64,000 bases of DNA from an uncultured Verrucomicrobiae bacterium (GTDB taxonomy: Bacteria; Verrucomicrobiota; Verrucomicrobiia; Chthoniobacterales; JAFAMB01): positions 704,001-768,000 of the forward strand of contig CAVXLD010000003.1 of the NCBI GenBank assembly GCA_963762565.1, in the 5' to 3' direction. The notes under the pieces were generated by a model. It was given only the letters and a program-made list of their open reading frames with translations. It had not been told where the DNA came from and made no database searches. The translations under genes were made by a program, and so were the position numbers. Positions 3,002-11,200 of this stretch are shown piece by piece. The first letter of the stretch is position 1, and each line of letters starts with the position of its first letter.

Positions 3002-3163
3002 AACCGCAGATGTACGCAGATTAAGAATCGAACCGCGGCTTCGCCGAACAAGCCGCGAAGGATGCGAACAAGTCGGGCCCAATTTGCAATGATCAGTGTT
3101 CATTCCCGATACGGGTTTTAGCGAGCTGACCTTATCTGCGTCAATCTGCGTTCATCTGCGGTT
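3002..3163. repeat. Decamer inverted-arm element (CGCAGATnnA ... ATCTGCGTnn)
   Basis: AACCGCAGATGTACGCAGAT ... ATCTGCGTCAATCTGCGTTCATCTGCGGTT. Second copy at 14052-14243. Confidence 0.8.
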
Positions 3164-3199
3164 GGTTTTCTCCGCTTCGTGTCTTTGCGTTAAGTCTGT

Positions 3200-4192
3200 T
3201 TAGCCGGACGGCACCACCACGACCTCGCCGGCTTCATTGGCTTCAAGAGCAACCTCGTGTGCTCCTTGATCTTTCGCCTGCAACAATTGGTTAGCCAGCA
3301 TCTCATCGAGGATTCGTTCCAACTCACGAATACCGAATCGGCTGACCTTCTCGTTAGCGGCTAACGCCTGGAGCAATAGCTCGGGAGCCACGAAATGTAC
3401 TTTTAGCCGGTATTGTTCAGCTAACTTGGCGATCTTGAGCAGAGCGATCTCGGCGATGACCATACCGCTCAAAGGCTGGAAGACGTATACCCGGTCAATT
3501 CGTCCCACGATCTCCGGGCGGAACACTTTTGATTCAGCCAGATAGGTTTTAATCGAGTTTACCATTTCATGGTAATCCGTCACTTCCCGTTGGATCTGCC
3601 CAATCTGCTCTGCATTAGCATTACTCGTTAAAACGATAATGGTTTGCGAAAAATCGACTGCTTTTCCGCTCCCTTGTTCGGTGAGACGTGCTTCACCCAT
3701 GAGTTGCAGGAACAGATCAAACACCGGTGGGTAGGCTTTTTCGATCTCATCAAAAAGGATCAAGCGTCTTGGGCTGGCCATGACCGGACGGGTGAGCTGT
3801 CCGCCTTGTTCGGAAGAGATGTAGCCGGCGGGGACACCAATTAGCCGGTCTTTAGAGTGGGAGCCATTCAACTCGGAGCAATCGAAACGGAGCATGGCCT
3901 TTTCCTCTTTGAAAAGGAAAGTGGCGATCGCTTTTGCTAACTCGGTCTTGCCGGTGCCGGTCGGGCCCAGGAACAGCAGATTCGCAATTGGACGAGTCTT
4001 TTGTTGTTTGGCCGCCTGTAGCCGAATCAACCTGGCCACATCTTTTATAATGACATCCTGACCTTTAACCCGCGCCTGGAGATGCTCCAATAGCGCCGGC
4101 TCGTCGATCCTCATGGTCTTGCCGTCATCATCCTGATTTTCGAGCAACCGCTTGAGCTGCTCCCAATCTGTCATGCCACGGATGTCAGCCAT
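3200..4192 (-). CDS. Stand-alone ClpB/ClpA D2-type AAA+ ATPase (soluble)
   Basis: VKGQD, Walker A GPTGTGKT, pore loop LIGVPAGY, Walker B LFDEIEKA, TSN sensor 1, RPEIVGRID, GIRELER. No Clp N-domain or D1. Confidence 0.85.
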   Translation of the reverse strand: MADIRGMTDWEQLKRLLENQDDDGKTMRIDEPALLEHLQARVKGQDVIIKDVARLIRLQAAKQQKTRPIANLLFLGPTGTGKTELAKAIATFLFKEEKAMLRFDCSELNGSHSKDRLIGVPAGYISSEQGGQLTRPVMASPRRLILFDEIEKAYPPVFDLFLQLMGEARLTEQGSGKAVDFSQTIIVLTSNANAEQIGQIQREVTDYHEMVNSIKTYLAESKVFRPEIVGRIDRVYVFQPLSGMVIAEIALLKIAKLAEQYRLKVHFVAPELLLQALAANEKVSRFGIRELERILDEMLANQLLQAKDQGAHEVALEANEAGEVVVVPSG

Positions 4193-4254
4193 TGTTAGTA
4201 CTTCTATTTCACCACAAAGGCGCGGAGAACACAAAGATTAACCTTGAAAGCCTT

Positions 4255-6105
4255 TTATTCGGCGCGCTCATTTGAGGTCACCGCTTGTTTGTCGGAAATC
4301 CGAACTGTGGAAAAACCGTCCTTGTTGCTCTGGGTCGGTTGATCGCTGAAGGTGGTGTTGGTGAGGCTGACATAACCGCGGTTGAGCGCCGAAACTCCGT
4401 AGGTCCGGTTAGATCCGATCGTGGAGTTTTCCAGGGTGATCATGGAGCTTTCAGTGGCCTGAGCACCGATATCGTTCTGTTCCAACGTGCAACTGGTGAG
4501 TGCGATTTTTGCCTCATTCCTGGCTACGACTCCCGTACCCTGGAAGCTCAGGAACTGACATTGCTGGCCGTGCACCTGTGAATTCGAACCCACGGTTTCT
4601 AACCCGTTTCCTTTTCCGCCTTTGACATCGCAGCCGGCCATTTCGAGCATCGATCCGGTATCGACATAGATCGAGCTATCCCAGGCGTCGCCATTGATAT
4701 GGCAATTGAATAGCTTCAGATAGCTGGCCCGGGTTAGCCGCGCCGCCTGTCCGGCTTGGCCGGACAAGGTGACATTCTCTAGTTGAGCAGATCCGCCCTT
4801 TGCCACGTTGGCTGCACTTACACCCAAATCGACGCCGTATTGGCCCCCCTGAATGGTGATATCCTTCAAACTAGCCTGCGCCTGATCAGCGACTAAGACG
4901 CCGGCGAATTGCACATCAGTGAAGGTCGTATTTGTCACGGTAGCAACCGAACCCTGACCGATAACCAGGAGATTCGCGAAATTTGCCGCTGAATCGCCAC
5001 CTTTCGGAATTTGGCCGCAGCCTTGGAATTTGCAGCCGTCCATCGTAAGCTGACCTCCGTTCCAAACCAGCACCGCTCTTGGATTGGAAACGAACTCGCA
5101 GCCGGTTAAGGTGAGCTTTCCAGGAGTATTCTGCTCAGAAGTACTTGCTGCCACCGTATACTTCCAGTAGCCCTCGCGGCTCTTTTCAAAACGGCAGTTT
5201 GTTAACATCATTATCCCCTGGGCATCCGTGACTACGCCCGTGTTTTCCGTAAAGGTACAGCGATTGAACTCAGCAGATCCCGTACTGGTGAAATAGACCA
5301 GGGAGGCGTCTTTAGAGTCGCTAATATTATTATCGAATTTGGAGTCGTTTATGACCACGGAACCCTGTTCAGTACAATCGACGCACCTTAGGTTTTCTTC
5401 GAAAGTACAACCTTGGATAGTGGCCTTAGCGTATCCTTTGACGGTACAGGCAAACCCCTTGCCTACCGAGCGCAGGGAACTGTCCTGCAAGGTCAACTGA
5501 GCATTGTCTGACAGCGCAATGCAATTGCTTCCCCGGGAAACGAAATTGCAGTTTTTGATTTGCACAACTGATTGCGAAATGGCTGAGATGAGGACGGATC
5601 CGCCTTCTGATGTTTCGCCGAAATCGAGATTCTGAAGTGTCACCTGGCCGCCAGTGATCACACAGCCGGTGCCGGAATAGTGGATTGAAGCCCGGACGCC
5701 AGTCTTTTGATCGGTGTCGCCGGTGATAACGACTGACTTCGCTAGAGCTAGCGGGCCGTTATAACTGCCGGGTTTTACCTGAACGGTGTCACCGTCCTGT
5801 AGGCTGTTTACAATTTGGGCAAAATCCTTAGCGTCGGAATCTGCCGCTCCGGTAGAATCGAGCACCCACTGCCGTCCATGCTTCGGGTTACTGAGGACTT
5901 GCGATTGCGAGGTTACCTGGTTGTTGGTCGTCGTCTGGTTGTTATTGGTGGTCTGAGTGCTGCTCGTGGTCTGGGTGCTGGTACTCGAAACGAATTTACC
6001 CGTGAACATATCCACCACCGTGGTACACAGCGCGACTAACCCGACCAGCGAGCAAACGATGACCCACTGGTTTTTGATTAACAGTCGAAAATCAAGTCCT
6101 CTCAC
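4255..6105 (-). CDS. Membrane-anchored right-handed parallel beta-helix protein
   Basis: N-terminal hydrophobic helix, S/T/N/Q linker, GDTVQVKPGSY cap, then many ~22-aa repeats (xxCxFxxN). The GTG start overlaps the upstream stop (GTGA). Confidence 0.8.
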   Translation of the reverse strand: MRGLDFRLLIKNQWVIVCSLVGLVALCTTVVDMFTGKFVSSTSTQTTSSTQTTNNNQTTTNNQVTSQSQVLSNPKHGRQWVLDSTGAADSDAKDFAQIVNSLQDGDTVQVKPGSYNGPLALAKSVVITGDTDQKTGVRASIHYSGTGCVITGGQVTLQNLDFGETSEGGSVLISAISQSVVQIKNCNFVSRGSNCIALSDNAQLTLQDSSLRSVGKGFACTVKGYAKATIQGCTFEENLRCVDCTEQGSVVINDSKFDNNISDSKDASLVYFTSTGSAEFNRCTFTENTGVVTDAQGIMMLTNCRFEKSREGYWKYTVAASTSEQNTPGKLTLTGCEFVSNPRAVLVWNGGQLTMDGCKFQGCGQIPKGGDSAANFANLLVIGQGSVATVTNTTFTDVQFAGVLVADQAQASLKDITIQGGQYGVDLGVSAANVAKGGSAQLENVTLSGQAGQAARLTRASYLKLFNCHINGDAWDSSIYVDTGSMLEMAGCDVKGGKGNGLETVGSNSQVHGQQCQFLSFQGTGVVARNEAKIALTSCTLEQNDIGAQATESSMITLENSTIGSNRTYGVSALNRGYVSLTNTTFSDQPTQSNKDGFSTVRISDKQAVTSNERAE

Positions 6106-7301
6106 TGCATTGACACTCCCGATGCACCCAATTCTTCTTCCAGAACGGGTTGGATTAACAGCTCGTTATTCGGCCCGGCCTCTAGCCGAACCTTAGTAAA
6201 ACCCGAAGTTCGCGCCTGCACGATGGCGGAATTGGTCGTTTGCTTAAGATAATTCTCAAGCTGGCGGACGCCGTACTGTTTGAACTCGACATTCTTGGCG
6301 ACGGTATCGAGCAGGATTTCGGGAGAAGTATAGGTCAACTCGATCCCATAGTCGCGCCAGTACCGAGCCAACTGGAGGCAAGCGACTTCGGCGACATGGT
6401 ACGCAGAGAGCTCGTCCATGAGAATGATATGAGCCCAACGGGCAAGAAAAGCGCGATCGAATCCCGCATTGTCGACTAGCGCATCGCGGCTCTGTCCAAG
6501 CCATAGAGCTTGATCTTTGGTTGGGTTGATTTCTTGGCGCAATTTTCTCAGTGCCTCTACGCCGGCGTTGCTGGTCCCAAAGAAGACGCACTGGCTGAAA
6601 TCGACTTCTTTTCCGCTGCTTTTCTCGCGGCAAGTGCCGGCGTCCAATATGTCGAACAAGCAATGATGCAAATCGGGGTGAGCCTTCTCTAGCTCATCCA
6701 AAATGACCACCCGTTTCGGATTAATCAGCACCGGTCTGGTGAGAGAGCCTCCCACCTCATATCCAGGCATACCCGGGGGCGGCCCGAGCAGCGTCTGAAC
6801 ATCGTTAGGCGTCTTGTATTGATTCATCCGCAGGATTACCGGATCGCTGTCGGGGTACAAAGCTTGGGCCAGCAACTGTGGCAGGAAGGTTTTTCCCGTA
6901 CCAGTTGGACCGACTAACAAGAAGGATCCTAAGAGTTGTCCTGGCTGAGCAATGGCAACCTGACTGCGTAAACTTGAGCTCACGATCTCGATCGCCTCGT
7001 CCTGTCCGCGAACATTGGTCTTTAGCCACTGTTCGGTTTGGGCAAAATCGATGTTGCCCAGCCTGGAGAAGTTCTCTTCTCGCGCTCGAGACGGAGTAGG
7101 AACCCCAGCGCCCATCTGCCGAATTGCGACGTAGACCAGGCCGCCAATTGCCAGGAGAAGAAGAACTGGGGAGAACCAGGCGCTGACTTGGTTCAAAGCA
7201 ATGACGGCGCCTGACAGCGTAACAATCAAGCCGGCCAGCATAGCGGGCGCTAGAGGCTGTTCCGAGCTGCGCTCGAACCAGGAATGCGTCGGGGAACTCA
7301 T
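6102..7301 (-). CDS. Membrane-anchored ClpB D2-type AAA+ ATPase
   Basis: Two N-terminal hydrophobic helices, VRGQDEA, GPTGTGKT, ILDELEKAHP, GTSN, FLARW, GVRQL. Confidence 0.85.
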   Translation of the reverse strand: MSSPTHSWFERSSEQPLAPAMLAGLIVTLSGAVIALNQVSAWFSPVLLLLAIGGLVYVAIRQMGAGVPTPSRAREENFSRLGNIDFAQTEQWLKTNVRGQDEAIEIVSSSLRSQVAIAQPGQLLGSFLLVGPTGTGKTFLPQLLAQALYPDSDPVILRMNQYKTPNDVQTLLGPPPGMPGYEVGGSLTRPVLINPKRVVILDELEKAHPDLHHCLFDILDAGTCREKSSGKEVDFSQCVFFGTSNAGVEALRKLRQEINPTKDQALWLGQSRDALVDNAGFDRAFLARWAHIILMDELSAYHVAEVACLQLARYWRDYGIELTYTSPEILLDTVAKNVEFKQYGVRQLENYLKQTTNSAIVQARTSGFTKVRLEAGPNNELLIQPVLEEELGASGVSMQ

Positions 7302-7321
7302 TTGATTTAGCCCTAAGGCGC

Positions 7322-8086
7322 TTACCGGCGTTGCATCTCTAAATTAGCCTGACCGCCGGTAGCGAGGGGAGGGGTGTGAAGAACAATGCCCTCATTCGAT
7401 GGAACGAAGCAAGTCACCGTTCCTTGAGGACCGGCAGAATCGACCACGAAGTGGAAATTAGTGACCGATTTCCGGCTGACTGGGACAATAGTAGTTTTTG
7501 GATGTTCCTCGGTTAAGACGTCCGTAAGCGCTAGCTGCCCATCGATGCTCACATAAACGTGGACCATGATTCCGCTTGCCTTGGCCGGGTCGAACAACTG
7601 TTTCCGGGTTAGGTCCATCTCCCCGTTCTTGATCTTCTCCAGCGCCTGTTGGCTTGTGTTCCTGAGATAGGAAGGAACTTCGCCGCGTTGCAGTGAATCC
7701 CGAGCCTGTTGGGTCAGTTGTTGATCAATGTCGCCGTCCGACAACATCAGGACCTGAGAAGTGGATGTGGCTCCGGCGTGCTGCCACGCGTAGTAGCCGC
7801 CTCCGGCGATGCCTGCGGCGGCCATCAGCACCAACAAATAAATGAGCGCTGATTTTCGCCAGTCCTTTTTCACCGGGTGACCGTTTTGCGGCTGATCCGA
7901 CATACCAGAGGCCGCTGTTTGGGGGACATAGGCTCGTCCCGAGCGCGAACCGCGGCGATCGGATTGATCCTGGCCCACCTTTGGCCCTAAGCGTTTGATC
8001 GCTCGCTGATCGCCCTGGGTCGTATCATATCCAGGTACGGTCGTCTTTCGTATCGCGGGATCGGATCTCTCTGGCACCGGTTCCAT
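7322..8086 (-). CDS. Single-pass membrane hypothetical protein
   Basis: Disordered N-terminus, KKDWRK then a hydrophobic helix, and a beta-rich C-domain. Lies 20 bp upstream of the ATPase gene. Confidence 0.7.
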   Translation of the reverse strand: MEPVPERSDPAIRKTTVPGYDTTQGDQRAIKRLGPKVGQDQSDRRGSRSGRAYVPQTAASGMSDQPQNGHPVKKDWRKSALIYLLVLMAAAGIAGGGYYAWQHAGATSTSQVLMLSDGDIDQQLTQQARDSLQRGEVPSYLRNTSQQALEKIKNGEMDLTRKQLFDPAKASGIMVHVYVSIDGQLALTDVLTEEHPKTTIVPVSRKSVTNFHFVVDSAGPQGTVTCFVPSNEGIVLHTPPLATGGQANLEMQRR

Positions 8087-8344
8087 AAGAAGTATTGGTA
8101 TCTTGACGTCGGCCTCCCCGAATTACTCCATACCCTAGAGAGTAAAAATCGGCCCCGAGTGTACCAAGAATTCGACAAATGTCGATGCGTTAGGCGCTTT
8201 CATGGAATCTGCGCTCTATTTTCCGCACCTCTGGGTGATGTGGGTTGGGGGAATGATCGTTTGGGCGGGCTTCGTCTCGCAGGGACTCGAGGACCATCCC
8301 AAAGAGACTGGACTCAGCCCGAGGTCAAGAGACGTGTGTCTCTC

Positions 8345-9183
8345 GTCCCGAAGGGACTGAACGATGGTAGCCTGGCATGAAATGCCTGGGAAAGGCCCCA
8401 AACCGACCCGTCCCGTAGGGTACGGTATGATCGGGGCGGCTAGCCCCAGAGATATTTTTCGTCAAGATTGCCGCCGTGCCCCTTGAGAAAAGCTAGATAC
8501 TCTTCTTTAAACGTCCGGGTTCGGTGATGTTCGAGCTGCCGTTCGATGTAACAGACGGTTTCAGGTATTTGCGATATGCCAACGCTAAAGGCGCCGTACC
8601 CCTGCTGCCAGGCAAAGTTCCGCAAATGCGGATAGGTCTGATGTATCCAGCCTGACGAACCTGTTTTGATCAATTGAACTGCTTTTGCTATTCCCATGGT
8701 GGTCGGGAGCGCGAGGAGGAGGTGAACATGATCTGCGGCGCCGCCGATGCATTTTGGAACAATTCCATTCTGTTTGGCAATGCCACCTATGTAAGGCCAA
8801 AGACGTTCTCTAATATCGGGAGTCAAAACGGGAACGCGCTCTTTTGTGCTAAAGACACAATGGATGTGCAGGCACGAGAAGGTATTCGCCATAGAGCGTA
8901 TGATCCAAAAAATCGCTAATAGTGATAACACTAAGGAGTGATGTTATGTGTTACCTATCCGATTTCGCCAGGTGTCATCGCATGAGGGTGAGGAATGCGT
9001 GAGGGCATTGCGCTACGGGCAGGACCTCTATCATACCGTCCCTCTGGGACGGGTCGCATAGGGGGCTATTTTCCAGGCATTTCATGCCAGGCTACCATCG
9101 TTCGGTCCCTCCGGGACGGCTCGCATAGGGGGCCATTTTCCAGCATCTCATGCCAGGCTACTTTCATTCAGTCCCTACGGGAC
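8345..9183. mobile_element. IS200-like/RAYT element: transposase enclosed by inverted REP arms (family E)
   Basis: Left arm 8345-8431 (GTCCCGnAGGGAC, GTAGCCTGGCATGAAATGCCTGG). The reverse-complement right arm at 9030-9183 is partly duplicated. Confidence 0.75.
8440..8892 (-). CDS. tnpA: Y1 (HUH) tyrosine transposase, IS200/RAYT type
   Basis: HCVFSTKER, HUH motif DHVHLL, WQQGYGAFSV, catalytic YIERQ; 150 aa. Confidence 0.9.
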   Translation of the reverse strand: MANTFSCLHIHCVFSTKERVPVLTPDIRERLWPYIGGIAKQNGIVPKCIGGAADHVHLLLALPTTMGIAKAVQLIKTGSSGWIHQTYPHLRNFAWQQGYGAFSVGISQIPETVCYIERQLEHHRTRTFKEEYLAFLKGHGGNLDEKYLWG

Positions 9184-9194
9184 AAACCTACCCC

Positions 9195-9482
9195 TCAAAC
9201 TCCGCGTTTGTTCCCCGGTCTTGTGCTGAGACTGACGGCAAGCGCATGTCGCTGCGAATAAGTTTCTCCGCTGCAGGACATGCGCTCGGACTCGGGCCAA
9301 ATCTGGGCTACGCATTCTTGAATCAATGCGATTGCCAGTTTTTCTAGAGGTAGGCCGAACGGGTGAATCAGTTTCAAGCCCAGGAGAAGAAACCTGAGCC
9401 GCCTGGCAAAGCGATGTCTTCTCTTGGCTAGCTGGTTGTAGTAGCGCTGCTGGCAGCGCCTTATTGACGGAGGCGATTCCAT
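9195..9482 (-). CDS. Possible small hypothetical protein
   Basis: ATG-initiated ORF 30 bp downstream of the SUKH gene. No motif recognised. Confidence 0.25.
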   Translation of the reverse strand: MESPPSIRRCQQRYYNQLAKRRHRFARRLRFLLLGLKLIHPFGLPLEKLAIALIQECVAQIWPESERMSCSGETYSQRHALAVSLSTRPGNKRGV

Positions 9483-9512: not shown

Positions 9513-10115
9513 TCAGCGCTTAGCGGCATCATTGACAATCGGCGTCGAATCTTTGTCGGGTGCTGGGTCGATTCGCAGTGCCTGCTGCAGCATATCGTTT
9601 ACCATCTCCGCAGCAGAACCGAAGGCATGAACCGGCGCTAACGTAACCCGCGACAGAACCACGTACTGTTTAGCCCCTAAGTCGAAACCGAAATACCAAA
9701 GATCCGAGTCACCAATAAAAAGGTATTTTCCAGCGGTTTCCGGCATAACGGACCAAAGGGAAAGATTTTCGGCCACGATCGTTGGGCCGTAAGCCTGTTC
9801 GTCGGGAAGATCTTGGTCGGTACCAAAGAGGCTGACCCCATTTTCCGAGAAACCATCTACTGCGGCGAAGATCTCCCGAAGTTCGACCGGCAGCTCGATT
9901 CCCAGCTCGTCGTACGCTGCCTGCTCTGTTTGCTCGATGTCTTCGGGCAGGGCTCCAGGAAGGAGCGGCCGGTTGCCTCGGGCTGCATCGCGGGCCAGAC
10001 GGTGTTCCAGGTTGGTTCGCTCGTCTGACGATAATTGCAGGTAGTATTGGGACGCTCGGAGATCGTTGAGAAATAGCTCGCTGAGCTCGCTTAATAAGTC
10101 GGTGTTGAGGTTCAT
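9513..10115 (-). CDS. SMI1/KNR4 (SUKH, YrhA-like) immunity-type protein
   Basis: ELGIELPVELREIF..VDG..NG..LFG, YLFIGDSD, FGSAAEMV pattern. Starts 2 bp after the upstream stop. Confidence 0.75.
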   Translation of the reverse strand: MNLNTDLLSELSELFLNDLRASQYYLQLSSDERTNLEHRLARDAARGNRPLLPGALPEDIEQTEQAAYDELGIELPVELREIFAAVDGFSENGVSLFGTDQDLPDEQAYGPTIVAENLSLWSVMPETAGKYLFIGDSDLWYFGFDLGAKQYVVLSRVTLAPVHAFGSAAEMVNDMLQQALRIDPAPDKDSTPIVNDAAKR

Positions 10116-10117
10116 AG

Positions 10118-11200
10118 CTAGACTTTAATGGTAGTGCCAGCGTTTACTTTCGGTCCGGCGGCGATTCTGGTTTGACTTCGTTTTCGACTAGATTTTGTTT
10201 TTGCCAGAGGCGGTGTTTCCGGAGTGGCTGTAAGGTTGGAATCGACGATCGGCAGCTTGTTTTTCGGCACATGGTCGGGGCCAAGTTGGTGCCCGTTCAC
10301 GTAGGCGTCGCCTGGAAGCCATTCTGCGGTTAAACCCTCCACCTTGCGAGCGAGTTCATCGCGCGCCGTCAATTTAGCTGATTCGTCTTTGTTCTTCTTA
10401 CTGTAGAACTCGCCGAACGCCCGAGTAATGTCGTGGAACTCTTTGGGGACGGAGTAGGCGCGGTGCCCGGTCGCTTTCGAGAATTCTAGTATGCGCTTTT
10501 CCCAGACTTCCGGTAATGGAGGCGCTCCTAGATTCTTGAGATGTTCCCGAAGCTGTTCCGGGGTCTTGAACCCCTGGGTGACAGGAGGATAAAAGGGAAA
10601 CAATGGTCGCACTACGTAGATGGGAATCTCAGCGTTCGGTGCGTTATGGGTTTGGGCATGGAGTAATAAGCTGTGCCAGAGATGGTGCGGATTTTGTGAC
10701 TGATCACGGCCCCGGCGAGTGGTATTCGCAATTACAAAATTGCGGGGATGGTTAACCGCGGCGTCGCCTCCAGCGACAGCGACACTTTTGGGGATCACGT
10801 GATGGCAGTTGTAAGTGACCTGGCGGCCACGCACCGCCCGCTCGGGTGGCGCGGTGGAGTCGATCAACGTAGACGGGCTCCGGCCTGCTTCCATCAGTTT
10901 CACCCCATCCGGGCCGACGGCGAGTAGGGCCAAGGTCCGGCCAATTGGATGATTGACTAGAGCTTGGAAGTATTCTTCCCGGATGTGGTTGTAGTCTTTG
11001 ATGACGGTCTTGTATTCTTCGCCTTGGCGATCCAGGGCTCTGCCGAGGATACGGTCCAAAACGACGCCGGGAAGCTCTGGACATGCGCCCACAATTTCCG
11101 GGTCAGGCGCCAATTTCTCGAAATCACGAATCGCTTCAGCGACGGCATCGATCATCTCCTGACGCGGAGGAGCAGGAGGTTGTTTTTTTGAAGAGCTCAT
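10118..11200 (-). CDS. Hypothetical protein with HNH-like nuclease motif (putative toxin)
   Basis: CHHVIP...NHPRNFV...PHHLWH matches the HH-N-H arrangement, and the gene is directly upstream of a SUKH gene. Confidence 0.6.
   Translation of the reverse strand: MSSSKKQPPAPPRQEMIDAVAEAIRDFEKLAPDPEIVGACPELPGVVLDRILGRALDRQGEEYKTVIKDYNHIREEYFQALVNHPIGRTLALLAVGPDGVKLMEAGRSPSTLIDSTAPPERAVRGRQVTYNCHHVIPKSVAVAGGDAAVNHPRNFVIANTTRRGRDQSQNPHHLWHSLLLHAQTHNAPNAEIPIYVVRPLFPFYPPVTQGFKTPEQLREHLKNLGAPPLPEVWEKRILEFSKATGHRAYSVPKEFHDITRAFGEFYSKKNKDESAKLTARDELARKVEGLTAEWLPGDAYVNGHQLGPDHVPKNKLPIVDSNLTATPETPPLAKTKSSRKRSQTRIAAGPKVNAGTTIKV

Follow-up and report, generated by a model that had tools for sequence, protein, structure and literature searches.

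Why would a bacterium encode, side by side, two separate ATPases that each resemble just the D2 domain of ClpB, and pair them with two membrane proteins? The question is raised by positions 3200 to 8086 of a 64,000-nt stretch of DNA (hereafter the window) from an uncultured Verrucomicrobiae bacterium, contig CAVXLD010000003.1. An earlier note on this DNA had described here an operon of four genes: a single-pass protein, an AAA+ ATPase anchored by two transmembrane (TM) segments, a TM-anchored beta-helix protein whose start overlaps the preceding stop in a GTGA, and a soluble AAA+ ATPase. Open reading frames (ORFs) and motifs confirmed this arrangement. The products are called P1 to P4 in this order, and the four ORFs are co-oriented and closely packed on the minus strand (Table 1). 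From the sequences we rate the module as a new system of familiar domains. As for its function, which we infer, we tentatively favor (probability about 40%) a split, membrane-anchored two-tier Hsp100 that would pull on bitopic or membrane-embedded partners.

A four-gene module with two D2-type ATPases

Orthologue-level matches to P2 (E ≤ 6e-125) were present in 8 of 41 genomes, comprising the window's own and 40 relatives. Within the family, 7 of 24 other genomes carried P2, distributed over three genera; none of 16 genomes from other families of the order did, and none of 400 other genomes in an even sample of the phylum reached E ≤ 1e-60. In all seven relatives' loci, one of them truncated at a contig end, the four genes stood in the same order. 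Across these loci identities were 31-78% for P1, 50-93% for P2, 25-81% for P3 and 59-98% for P4, P3 being the fastest-evolving part. A scan of one genome per species, all of them metagenome-assembled, yielded 80 loci: 28 in Verrucomicrobiota, 32 in Elusimicrobiota, 6 each in Gemmatimonadota and Planctomycetota, 3 in Bacteriovoracaceae, 1 each in Binataceae, Proteobacteria and Oligoflexia, and 2 unassigned. The module occurs in at least six other bacterial phyla, with P2 proteins of 44-60% identity. Phmmer and iterated profiles detected P2 in 79 of these loci, P4 in 70 and P1 in 67; 76 loci have a protein that bears the anchor or resembles P3, and 61 have all four parts. The earlier note would have been refuted by a gene set not conserved elsewhere, and this condition does not hold. 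Of the 19 loci that lack a part, many are short contigs; locus L105 holds a conventional two-ring Clp ATPase. The genes come in one of two orders, P1-P2-P3-P4 or P4-P1-P2-P3(n). ORF calling in the related loci was automatic, and the starts are therefore approximate. The patchy spread across phyla indicates horizontal transfer. A tblastn search of plasmids and phages with P2 returned no orthologue, the matches being ClpB/TssH-like proteins of less than 35% identity.

Both ATPases matched Pfam AAA_2 (PF07724, cut-off 27 bits), P2 with 98 bits (7.8e-28) and P4 with 147.6 bits (4.5e-43). The ClpB model TIGR03346 was covered only at positions 558-828 (P2) and 560-840 (P4) of 853, with 148.6 and 227.2 bits against a cut-off of 1232.1. 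Generally, only the last third of the ClpB, ClpA and ClpV models was matched, far under the curated cut-offs, and membership among full-length ClpB, ClpA or ClpC proteins was rejected. The best solved relatives are also ClpB D2 domains (9.3e-55 for P4, 1.1e-39 for P2). Because the matches are confined to D2, both proteins must lack the Clp N-domain, D1 and the middle domain, as the earlier note had stated. P2 and P4 align across the whole of the D2 large and small domains and are 31% identical over 297 residues.

The window's P2 and P4 each combine AAA_2 with the five motifs of a Clp D2-type module, namely Walker A lysine, Walker B aspartate and glutamate, sensor-1 asparagine, arginine finger and sensor-2 arginine. 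Their conservation was followed in the window and in the 66 of 80 loci that have both paralogs at plausible length. The Walker A lysine, Walker B aspartate, sensor-1 asparagine and arginine finger are present in 67 of 67 P2 and 67 of 67 P4 sequences. P4 is equally invariant at the Walker B glutamate and the sensor-2 arginine; P2 has them in 65 of 67 (aspartate in the other two) and 66 of 67, respectively. In a tree of the 67 P2 sequences, the 67 P4 sequences and four D2 domains of full-length Clp ATPases, each paralog formed its own clade (support 1.0 for P2, 0.74 for P4). Between the paralogs, patristic distances show a correlation of r = 0.76 over 2,211 pairs, a value that kinship inflates. 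P2 and P4 are distinct ATPases that are inherited together.

The two paralogs differ at the pore loop. The aromatic residue corresponding to the tyrosine of ClpB G-Y-V-G is present in every P4 (61 tyrosine, 6 phenylalanine) but in only 12 of 67 P2 proteins (11 tyrosine, 1 phenylalanine). The window's P2 is among the 55 without it, reading GMPG where ClpB has GYVG, and its P4 keeps the aromatic. P4 is also the slower-evolving paralog and the best-conserved part of the module, with a conserved N-terminal helix, M-T-D-W-E-x-L. Since the aromatic is conserved in P4 and mostly lost in P2, P4 looks like the threading motor, and P2 looks like a membrane-anchored, ATP-binding partner ring. The N-terminal TM hairpin of P2 is conserved at its tip (L-N-Q-V-S); in an alignment of 16 sequences P45 and G54 are invariant and L36 and N37 nearly so. 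A non-conserved tether of about 15-20 residues joins the hairpin to the AAA+ domain. A search for P2 in a protein collection gave 536 matches at E ≤ 1e-10 among 8,000 scored; the best 120 of the 536 share 52-99% identity, which amounts to no fewer than 120 clusters, and all have generic names.

Two natural fusions bear on how the parts work together. In P0273 (721 aa, five member sequences) a TM hairpin is followed by a P2-like domain (29% identity, E 6e-21), which keeps the P2-specific G-S-C-R-S-S motif and has a degenerate Walker B (D-G), and this domain by a P4-like one (47% identity, E 7e-95). The earlier proposal of a hetero-oligomeric unfoldase gains support from this protein. In P0271 (716 aa, one sequence) a linker of some 50 residues separates a P2-like part (51% identity, 90% coverage) from a TM segment and the Cys-rich Sel1 repeats that follow it; the protein ties P2 physically to a P3-type protein and strengthens the earlier idea that the ATPases act with periplasmic partners. 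The residues that border this TM segment, K-R-L-W-W-R-W-K toward the cytoplasm and E-S-H-E-P beyond the membrane, fit a predicted N-in/C-out anchor. A further protein, P0272 (614 aa), is a tandem of two P4-like domains with no TM segment and with Walker motifs partly degenerate in both domains, and may be a soluble offshoot of the family.

The two bitopic partners

P1 and the proteins in the P3 slot are predicted to be bitopic, and each has a conserved element on the cytoplasmic or membrane side. P1 matched no family in Pfam, NCBIfam or PADLOC. An AlphaFold2 (AF2) model of P1 has a predicted local distance difference test (pLDDT) score above 90 for residues 111-254 and a helix at 76-103; the modelled periplasmic part is a small alpha/beta unit plus an Ig-like sandwich. 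Foldseek found no match to this model at E ≤ 0.001, a wide search with VIA-align peaked at Z 5.1 with generic Ig-like sandwiches and no specific structural relative, and a search of the ESM Atlas with P1 gave no usable match; the fold points to no particular function.

The best-conserved stretch of P1 is a cytoplasmic motif, R-G-x-A-Y-x-P-x-P, located 20-30 residues ahead of the TM helix. Its window version is S-G-R-A-Y-V-P-Q, in which Y53 hardly varies across an alignment of 40 sequences. A strict form, [AP]-Y-x(1,2)-P ahead of the TM helix, occurs in 41 of 67 P1 relatives, with looser variants in others; its background frequency in 899 flanking proteins is 0.044 per 100 residues. The motif and the TM helix are retained where the periplasmic domain has been lost, as in forms of 105 aa. 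In one Elusimicrobiota clade, short forms of 81-106 aa consist of just the motif (G-P-G-E-P-Y-T-P-M/L-P) and the TM helix. A P1 relative lies directly upstream of P2 in 67 of the 80 loci, and in Bacteriovoracaceae a P1-like gene with the motif, judged by eye, lies on the opposite strand. A profile search for the P1 family in 1.84 billion representatives returned 802 matches at E ≤ 1e-3, of which 362 reach 1e-10 and 91 reach 1e-30. The 150 top-scoring relatives all measure 93-375 aa, so there are no fusions among those 150.

P3 matched Beta_helix (PF13229) with 151.6 bits (1.8e-44, cut-off 25.9), which identifies it as a right-handed beta-helix protein, and Pfam NosD at 9.5e-11. In its AF2 model (mean pLDDT 85.4) a TM helix (13-35) is followed by a disordered linker (35-68), rich in serine, threonine, asparagine and glutamine, and by the beta-helix (79-604). 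Foldseek matches were PL6 alginate lyases, phage tailspikes and depolymerases, AlgG, GH87 glucanases and antigen 43, at identities of 9-14%. The modelled fold is the generic pectin-lyase fold and implies no particular enzyme.

The gene or genes after P2 encode differing outer domains that all share one N-terminal element, as seen in an alignment of 37 sequences. This anchor (full consensus M-x5-L-x-x-D-x-W-F-Q-L-x-A-x-x-A-x-x-S-G) consists of a tail of 8-13 residues that leads into a TM helix containing the part from the first L to S-G, and is followed by a low-complexity linker rich in proline, alanine, serine and threonine. Among 3,807 open segments an anchor profile found 79 ORFs in 68 of the 80 loci. 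All 79 are on the strand of P2 and immediately downstream of it, and none lies in the flanks. One anchored protein per locus is usual (61 loci); five loci have two, one has three and one has five. By Pfam at E ≤ 1e-5, the outer domains are Beta_helix in 49, Sel1 repeats in 14, BNR/PSII_BNR propellers in 5 and WD40 in 1; 10 belong to no family, three of which are fragments. Both profiles, that of the anchor and that of P1, were counted on the loci from which they had been built. Their specificity is supported by the absence of flank matches and by a control in the window's own genome, where, among 10,278 open segments of 120 aa or more, the operon's P3 alone carried the anchor (E 5.9e-9, against 0.29 for the runner-up). 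An extra conserved protein of about 300 aa, outside any Pfam family, follows the Sel1 gene in two Verrucomicrobiota loci whose anchored proteins are of the Sel1 type (L053:9623-10531 and L055:10739-11653).

Proposed mechanism and its rivals

In FtsH and in Clp/Hsp100 proteins the substrate enters at the N-terminal face of the ring, and tandem AAA+ modules form stacked rings. The N-terminal hairpin, the tether of 15-20 residues and this known polarity together suggest that the entry face of P2 is tied to the membrane. We propose that the P2 ring would be held by its short tether with the entry face toward the bilayer, and that the P4 ring, acting as threading motor, would lie stacked under it. 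By means of the anchor they have in common, the repeat proteins would attach to the P2 hairpin and form a periplasmic ligand-binding crown, and P1 would be coupled to the ATPases through its tail motif. The disordered P1 tail of 50-80 residues with its nearly invariant tyrosine is the best candidate for an initiation or docking site. ATP hydrolysis could then pull a membrane-embedded partner from the cytoplasmic side, resulting in extraction, in remodelling or in force on the periplasmic domains. Such a machine would be a dislocase or puller, not a pusher. Its role may be envelope maintenance, turnover of surface-directed binding proteins, or conflict.

The dislocases FtsH and Msp1/ATAD1 are analogous in that an N-terminal TM anchor precedes an AAA+ ring whose entry face would be toward the membrane; what we observe of this likeness is the N-terminal position of the anchor and the short tether. 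The pulling of membrane proteins from the bilayer, as proposed here, would be a functional analogy to them. Those enzymes, however, belong to the classical AAA+ clade and not to the Clp/Hsp100 D2 group, and homology is limited to the AAA+ fold. Furthermore, the module has no protease domain, has two ATPase paralogs, and encodes P1 and periplasmic repeat proteins alongside them. The five catalytic motifs are common to P2, P4, the D2 of ClpB/Hsp104 and D2-only relatives such as Skd3/CLPB. Unlike ClpB, the module has two separate paralogous genes, one of them for a protein with a two-TM anchor, and co-encoded membrane partners, and P2 mostly lacks the canonical pore-loop aromatic.

Torsins are not known to have the arginine finger or the pore-loop aromatic. 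The Pfam Torsin model (PF06309) matched P2 and P4 weakly (21.8 and 24.1 bits, cut-off 27), and since the arginine finger is invariant in both families we rejected this assignment. The pairing itself is similar, in that Torsin, a D2-like AAA+ protein, is paired with LAP1/LULL1, a membrane-anchored AAA-fold paralog, according to PMC4358337 and PMC4999309. In contrast to LAP1, which has no nucleotide-binding motifs and donates an arginine, P2 and P4 both have complete motifs and arginine fingers, and they must be cytoplasmic, which is a further difference. Mechanotransmission of the NosDFY/FtsEX type also couples a cytoplasmic ATPase through TM segments to a periplasmic beta-helix or effector domain. 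There the ATPases are ABC-type, however, and no NosF or NosY partner is encoded here; membership of P3 in the NosD family (TIGR04247) was rejected at 21 bits against a cut-off of 300, its neighbours being AAA+ and not ABC proteins. ClpV/TssH of the type VI secretion system (T6SS; TIGR03345) was likewise rejected (151.7 and 169 bits against 884.95). A census of the flanking genes, in which T6SS models were not specifically searched, returned no gene family in more than 10 of the 80 loci, the commonest being a further Sel1 protein downstream of P4. The systems closest in working principle are FtsH/Msp1, the Plasmodium translocon of exported proteins (PTEX), Torsin-LAP1 and the ABC mechanotransmitters; the module is homologous to these only through the AAA+ or beta-helix folds.

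The family libraries Pfam and NCBIfam and the defence library PADLOC did not recognise the system. We found no description of it in the literature searched, including passages of the comparative-genomics papers PMC11237479 and PMC7159879, whose supplementary tables could list it. These results are consistent with the earlier view that the system had not been described. All carriers found are uncultured, which may be the reason for this silence.

Several points weigh against the pulling mechanism. Ring stacking, ring orientation and a threaded polypeptide are all things that we infer. No protease is encoded, and the fate of an extracted protein is thus unexplained. Lysines and arginines around 37 anchors are more numerous on the N-terminal side in 20, equal in 7 and more numerous on the C-terminal side in 10; this bias does not settle the topology proposed for P3, for which the grounds are the types of domain, the linkers and one fusion protein. 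That fusion, P0271, is one sequence on a 2.9-kb contig. Metagenome relatives of P0273 have the P2-like and P4-like parts as adjacent separate ORFs, with a stop between them in L107 and different frames in L106, so that P0273 may be an artefact or a rare form. What is real is that the two genes are neighbours with no P3 between them. Finally, a conserved core with variable cargo carrying a terminal signal, and the toxin variant described next, fit export or conflict at least equally well.

In this variant a P1-like gene, a degenerate P2-like gene and P4 are followed directly by a gene for an ATPase resembling the TrwB/VirD4-type coupling protein (type IV coupling protein, T4CP) and then by genes for toxin-domain proteins (Endonuclea_NS_2, 2.1e-6; Gln_amidase, 5e-7; Zeta_toxin, 3.2e-22; Peptidase_M48). 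It was found in 3 of 80 metagenome loci (L115, L147 and L118; Table 1), which had been retrieved with a query biased towards the variant, and no anchored protein was detected in these three. Most of the other metagenome loci have the canonical order. In L115 two adjacent toxin-like ORFs (5921-6835 and 6609-7658) have, as judged by eye, a common N-terminal region and a C-terminal P-x-G-Y-T-S-P tail. An upstream ORF of L115 ends in N-R-A-Y-T-P-D, and this end and the tail are reminiscent of the P1 motif.

The variant is one reason to consider that P1, P2 and P4 form a dedicated export or sorting machine, which would read the W-F-Q anchor as a signal and unfold or deliver cargo for insertion or export, like accessory secretion ATPases or like HSP101 feeding the EXP2 pore. 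PTEX of Plasmodium, composed of HSP101, PTEX150 and EXP2, is a Clp/Hsp100 unfoldase on a membrane assembly and handles proteins with N-terminal signals. One to five cargo-like genes per locus with a common N-terminal element and differing outer domains are the usual signature of secretion substrates, and the shared regions of the L115 toxin-like ORFs point the same way. The geometry does not. In known AAA+ export motors the exit face is where the pore docks. HSP101, a complete two-ring Hsp100, sits with that face on a separate pore protein, whereas P2 is D2-only with its hairpin at the entry side. Sel1, beta-helix and propeller proteins are, moreover, normally exported by Sec unaided, the P2-anchor-Sel1 fusion suggests a stable partner instead of a transient cargo, and the variant is confined to three loci from a biased query. 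Export thus seems to us unlikely, though it deserves serious consideration.

A role in conflict or defence, which the earlier note had also listed, is a slightly more doubtful explanation. The periplasmic repeat proteins would be sensors or envelope-directed effectors, and the AAA+ pair would be a nucleoside triphosphate (NTP)-dependent switch that activates them, or the toxins of the variant, upon attack by a phage or competitor. This would agree with the patchy distribution (7 of 24 genomes in the family, 0 of 400 in the phylum sample, 44-60% identity in other phyla), with the rapid evolution of P3 relative to P4, and with the swapping of repeats that form superstructures together with classical toxin effector domains in the variant. 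PMC7159879 describes TM-preceded Sel1 domains as peptidoglycan-associating effector domains in NTP-dependent conflict systems. In PADLOC, which had been suggested as a means to exclude known systems, P2 and P4 match DolB (2.2e-11 and 1.5e-20) and PDC-M37B (1.2e-16 and 3.3e-29), but these matches cover the AAA core alone (for example profile positions 138-300 of 390), and P1 and P3 match no PADLOC family. Dodola (DolA/DolB) and the candidate PDC-M37 likewise have a stand-alone ClpB-D2-like ATPase; their partner proteins are absent here and, unlike theirs, the context of the module is no defence island, and we rejected both. The neighbourhood census gave the defence option no support: PADLOC models are hit at E ≤ 1e-8 by only 9 of the module's 143 immediate neighbours, in every case through generic domains (including two kinases, Fic, an ABC-like ATPase, two UvrD-like helicases, a caspase-like and an LmuA-like protein), and flanking genes look housekeeping and are not conserved. 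The absence of an orthologue from the plasmids and phages searched also argues against such a role.

By analogy with endoplasmic-reticulum-associated degradation (ERAD), the module could conceivably be a retro-translocon, in which hexameric Sel1, beta-helix or propeller crowns would capture polypeptides in the periplasm or outer envelope and stacked P2-over-P4 rings would pull them across the inner membrane to the cytoplasm. In a related form, the same motor would reel in P1 as an ATP-driven counterpart of TonB. We consider either form improbable. The retrotranslocon of ERAD (Hrd1, Hrd3/Sel1L and Cdc48) also places Sel1-repeat receptors across the membrane from a cytosolic AAA+ puller, a likeness of architecture only; the module has no ubiquitin system and no Hrd1 or Der1 homologue, its AAA+ proteins are of another clade and, unlike for ERAD, there is no evidence of anything crossing the membrane. 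The last alternative, that P2 and P4 are fragments of a split or decayed clpB or chance neighbours of unrelated genes, can be dismissed for practical purposes: both are indeed nearest to ClpB D2, but both pieces are D2-type and so not complementary, they are only 31% identical, they keep all catalytic residues and form their own clades across phyla within a four-gene set found in 61 of 80 loci, and intact Clp ATPases with full AAA_2 matches are encoded elsewhere in the genome as open frames of 862 aa and 841 aa (contigs C13 and C9).

Neighbouring genes and significance of the module

The features of the locus and the variant loci are collected in Table 1. The true start of P4 is probably the ATG at 4192, giving a protein of 330 aa, because relatives start at the equivalent of M15. 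The promoter-like match upstream of P1 is the only one outside coding regions on the minus strand of the region. It is weak evidence, since the number of sites in the region equals the shuffle expectation.

Table 1. Coordinates of the features of the locus (window positions) and of the variant loci (metagenome).
Feature	Position	Strand	Evidence or remark
P1, bitopic membrane protein, 254 aa: disordered cytoplasmic tail, TM helix, periplasmic alpha/beta and Ig-like beta-sandwich domain	7322-8086	minus	ORF; no Pfam, NCBIfam or PADLOC family
P1 cytoplasmic motif G-R-A-Y-V-P, residues 50-55	7922-7939	minus	
P1 TM helix, residues about 80-101, preceded by K-K-D-W-R-K	7784-7849	minus	Sequence and AF2 helix
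P2, membrane-anchored ClpB-D2-type AAA+, 399 aa	6102-7301	minus	Catalytic motifs complete, pore-loop 1 degenerate
P2 N-terminal two-TM hairpin, residues about 18-60	7122-7250	minus	16-sequence alignment
GTGA overlap, P2 stop/P3 start	6102-6105	minus	Sequence
P3, anchored periplasmic right-handed beta-helix protein, 616 aa	4255-6105	minus	Variable slot for anchored repeat proteins
P3 N-terminal anchor (short tail and TM), residues 1-35	6001-6105	minus	37-sequence alignment
P3 beta-helix domain, residues 79-604	4294-5871	minus	AF2, Foldseek
P4, soluble ClpB-D2-type AAA+, 344 aa	3200-4234	minus	Pore loop G-Y-I canonical
Weak sigma-70-like promoter match upstream of P1	8158-8185	minus	9 of 12 positions
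Y1/IS200-type transposase ORF	8440-8931 (region 8216-9261)	minus	PF01797, 7.6e-26
Putative toxin (360 aa, no Pfam, NCBIfam or PADLOC family) and YrhA/SMI1-type immunity protein	9513-11200	minus	NF038335, 3.9e-18
Variant locus L115	1-8421		Coupling-protein-like ATPase, 1.1e-30
Variant locus L147	3798-12164		Coupling-protein-like ATPase, 8.6e-23
Variant locus L118	103-5638		Coupling-protein-like ATPase, 3.5e-13

The transposase and the toxin-immunity pair that the earlier note placed beside the operon are present upstream of it, but neither travels with the module. The transposase gene is flanked by inverted arrays of a palindrome-containing unit of about 50 nt, with arms at 8344-8393 and 9069-9118 that are 94% complementary. 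At least 40 copies of this unit are scattered over the genome, often as inverted pairs. The transposase thus looks like one associated with repetitive extragenic palindromic (REP) elements (a RAYT) and not like a mobile insertion sequence. In same-genus assemblies contigs break 300-900 bp upstream of P1, possibly at REP-like repeats.

The toxin-immunity pair is 74-82% identical in five of five same-genus genomes and belongs to a syntenic backbone of an HPr-like protein, a 548-aa membrane protein, the toxin and the immunity protein. Genome G001 has the pair, no P2 orthologue and no module within 4.4 kb after the immunity gene; in two other genera (G016 and G020) the module stands without the pair next to it. 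Pair and module are thus associated only locally, and a functional link between them was rejected. In G016 a 767-aa two-ring Clp ATPase (L020:3391-5694; Clp_N, AAA, AAA_lid_9, AAA_2 and ClpB_D2-small domains) is encoded on the opposite strand about 1.6 kb from P4, and G022 has a similar frame of 771 aa; the proximity in G016 may be coincidence.

DNA near-identical to positions 3100-8300 of the window (at least half of the sampled words) was present in 7 listed soil-metagenome runs from 4 studies, one of which may be the source of this DNA, and no RNA runs were among the sequencing runs listed for it. The carrier appears to be a recurrent soil organism.

The Clp/Hsp100 unfoldases known in bacteria are soluble cytoplasmic machines. 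If our reading is true, a D2-only pair, with one member embedded in the inner membrane and wired to swappable periplasmic domains, would represent a new way of coupling ATP to the envelope. Whichever reading applies, be it dislocase, exporter or conflict system, the module would add one more to the few AAA+ machines that work across a membrane. The P3-slot anchor motif, the tyrosine motif in the tail of P1, the asymmetry between the P2 and P4 pore loops, the natural fusions and the T4CP/toxin variant offer experimental handles. The carriers belong to abundant uncultured phyla of soil and groundwater, namely Verrucomicrobiota, Elusimicrobiota, Gemmatimonadota and Planctomycetota, whose envelope biology is little known.

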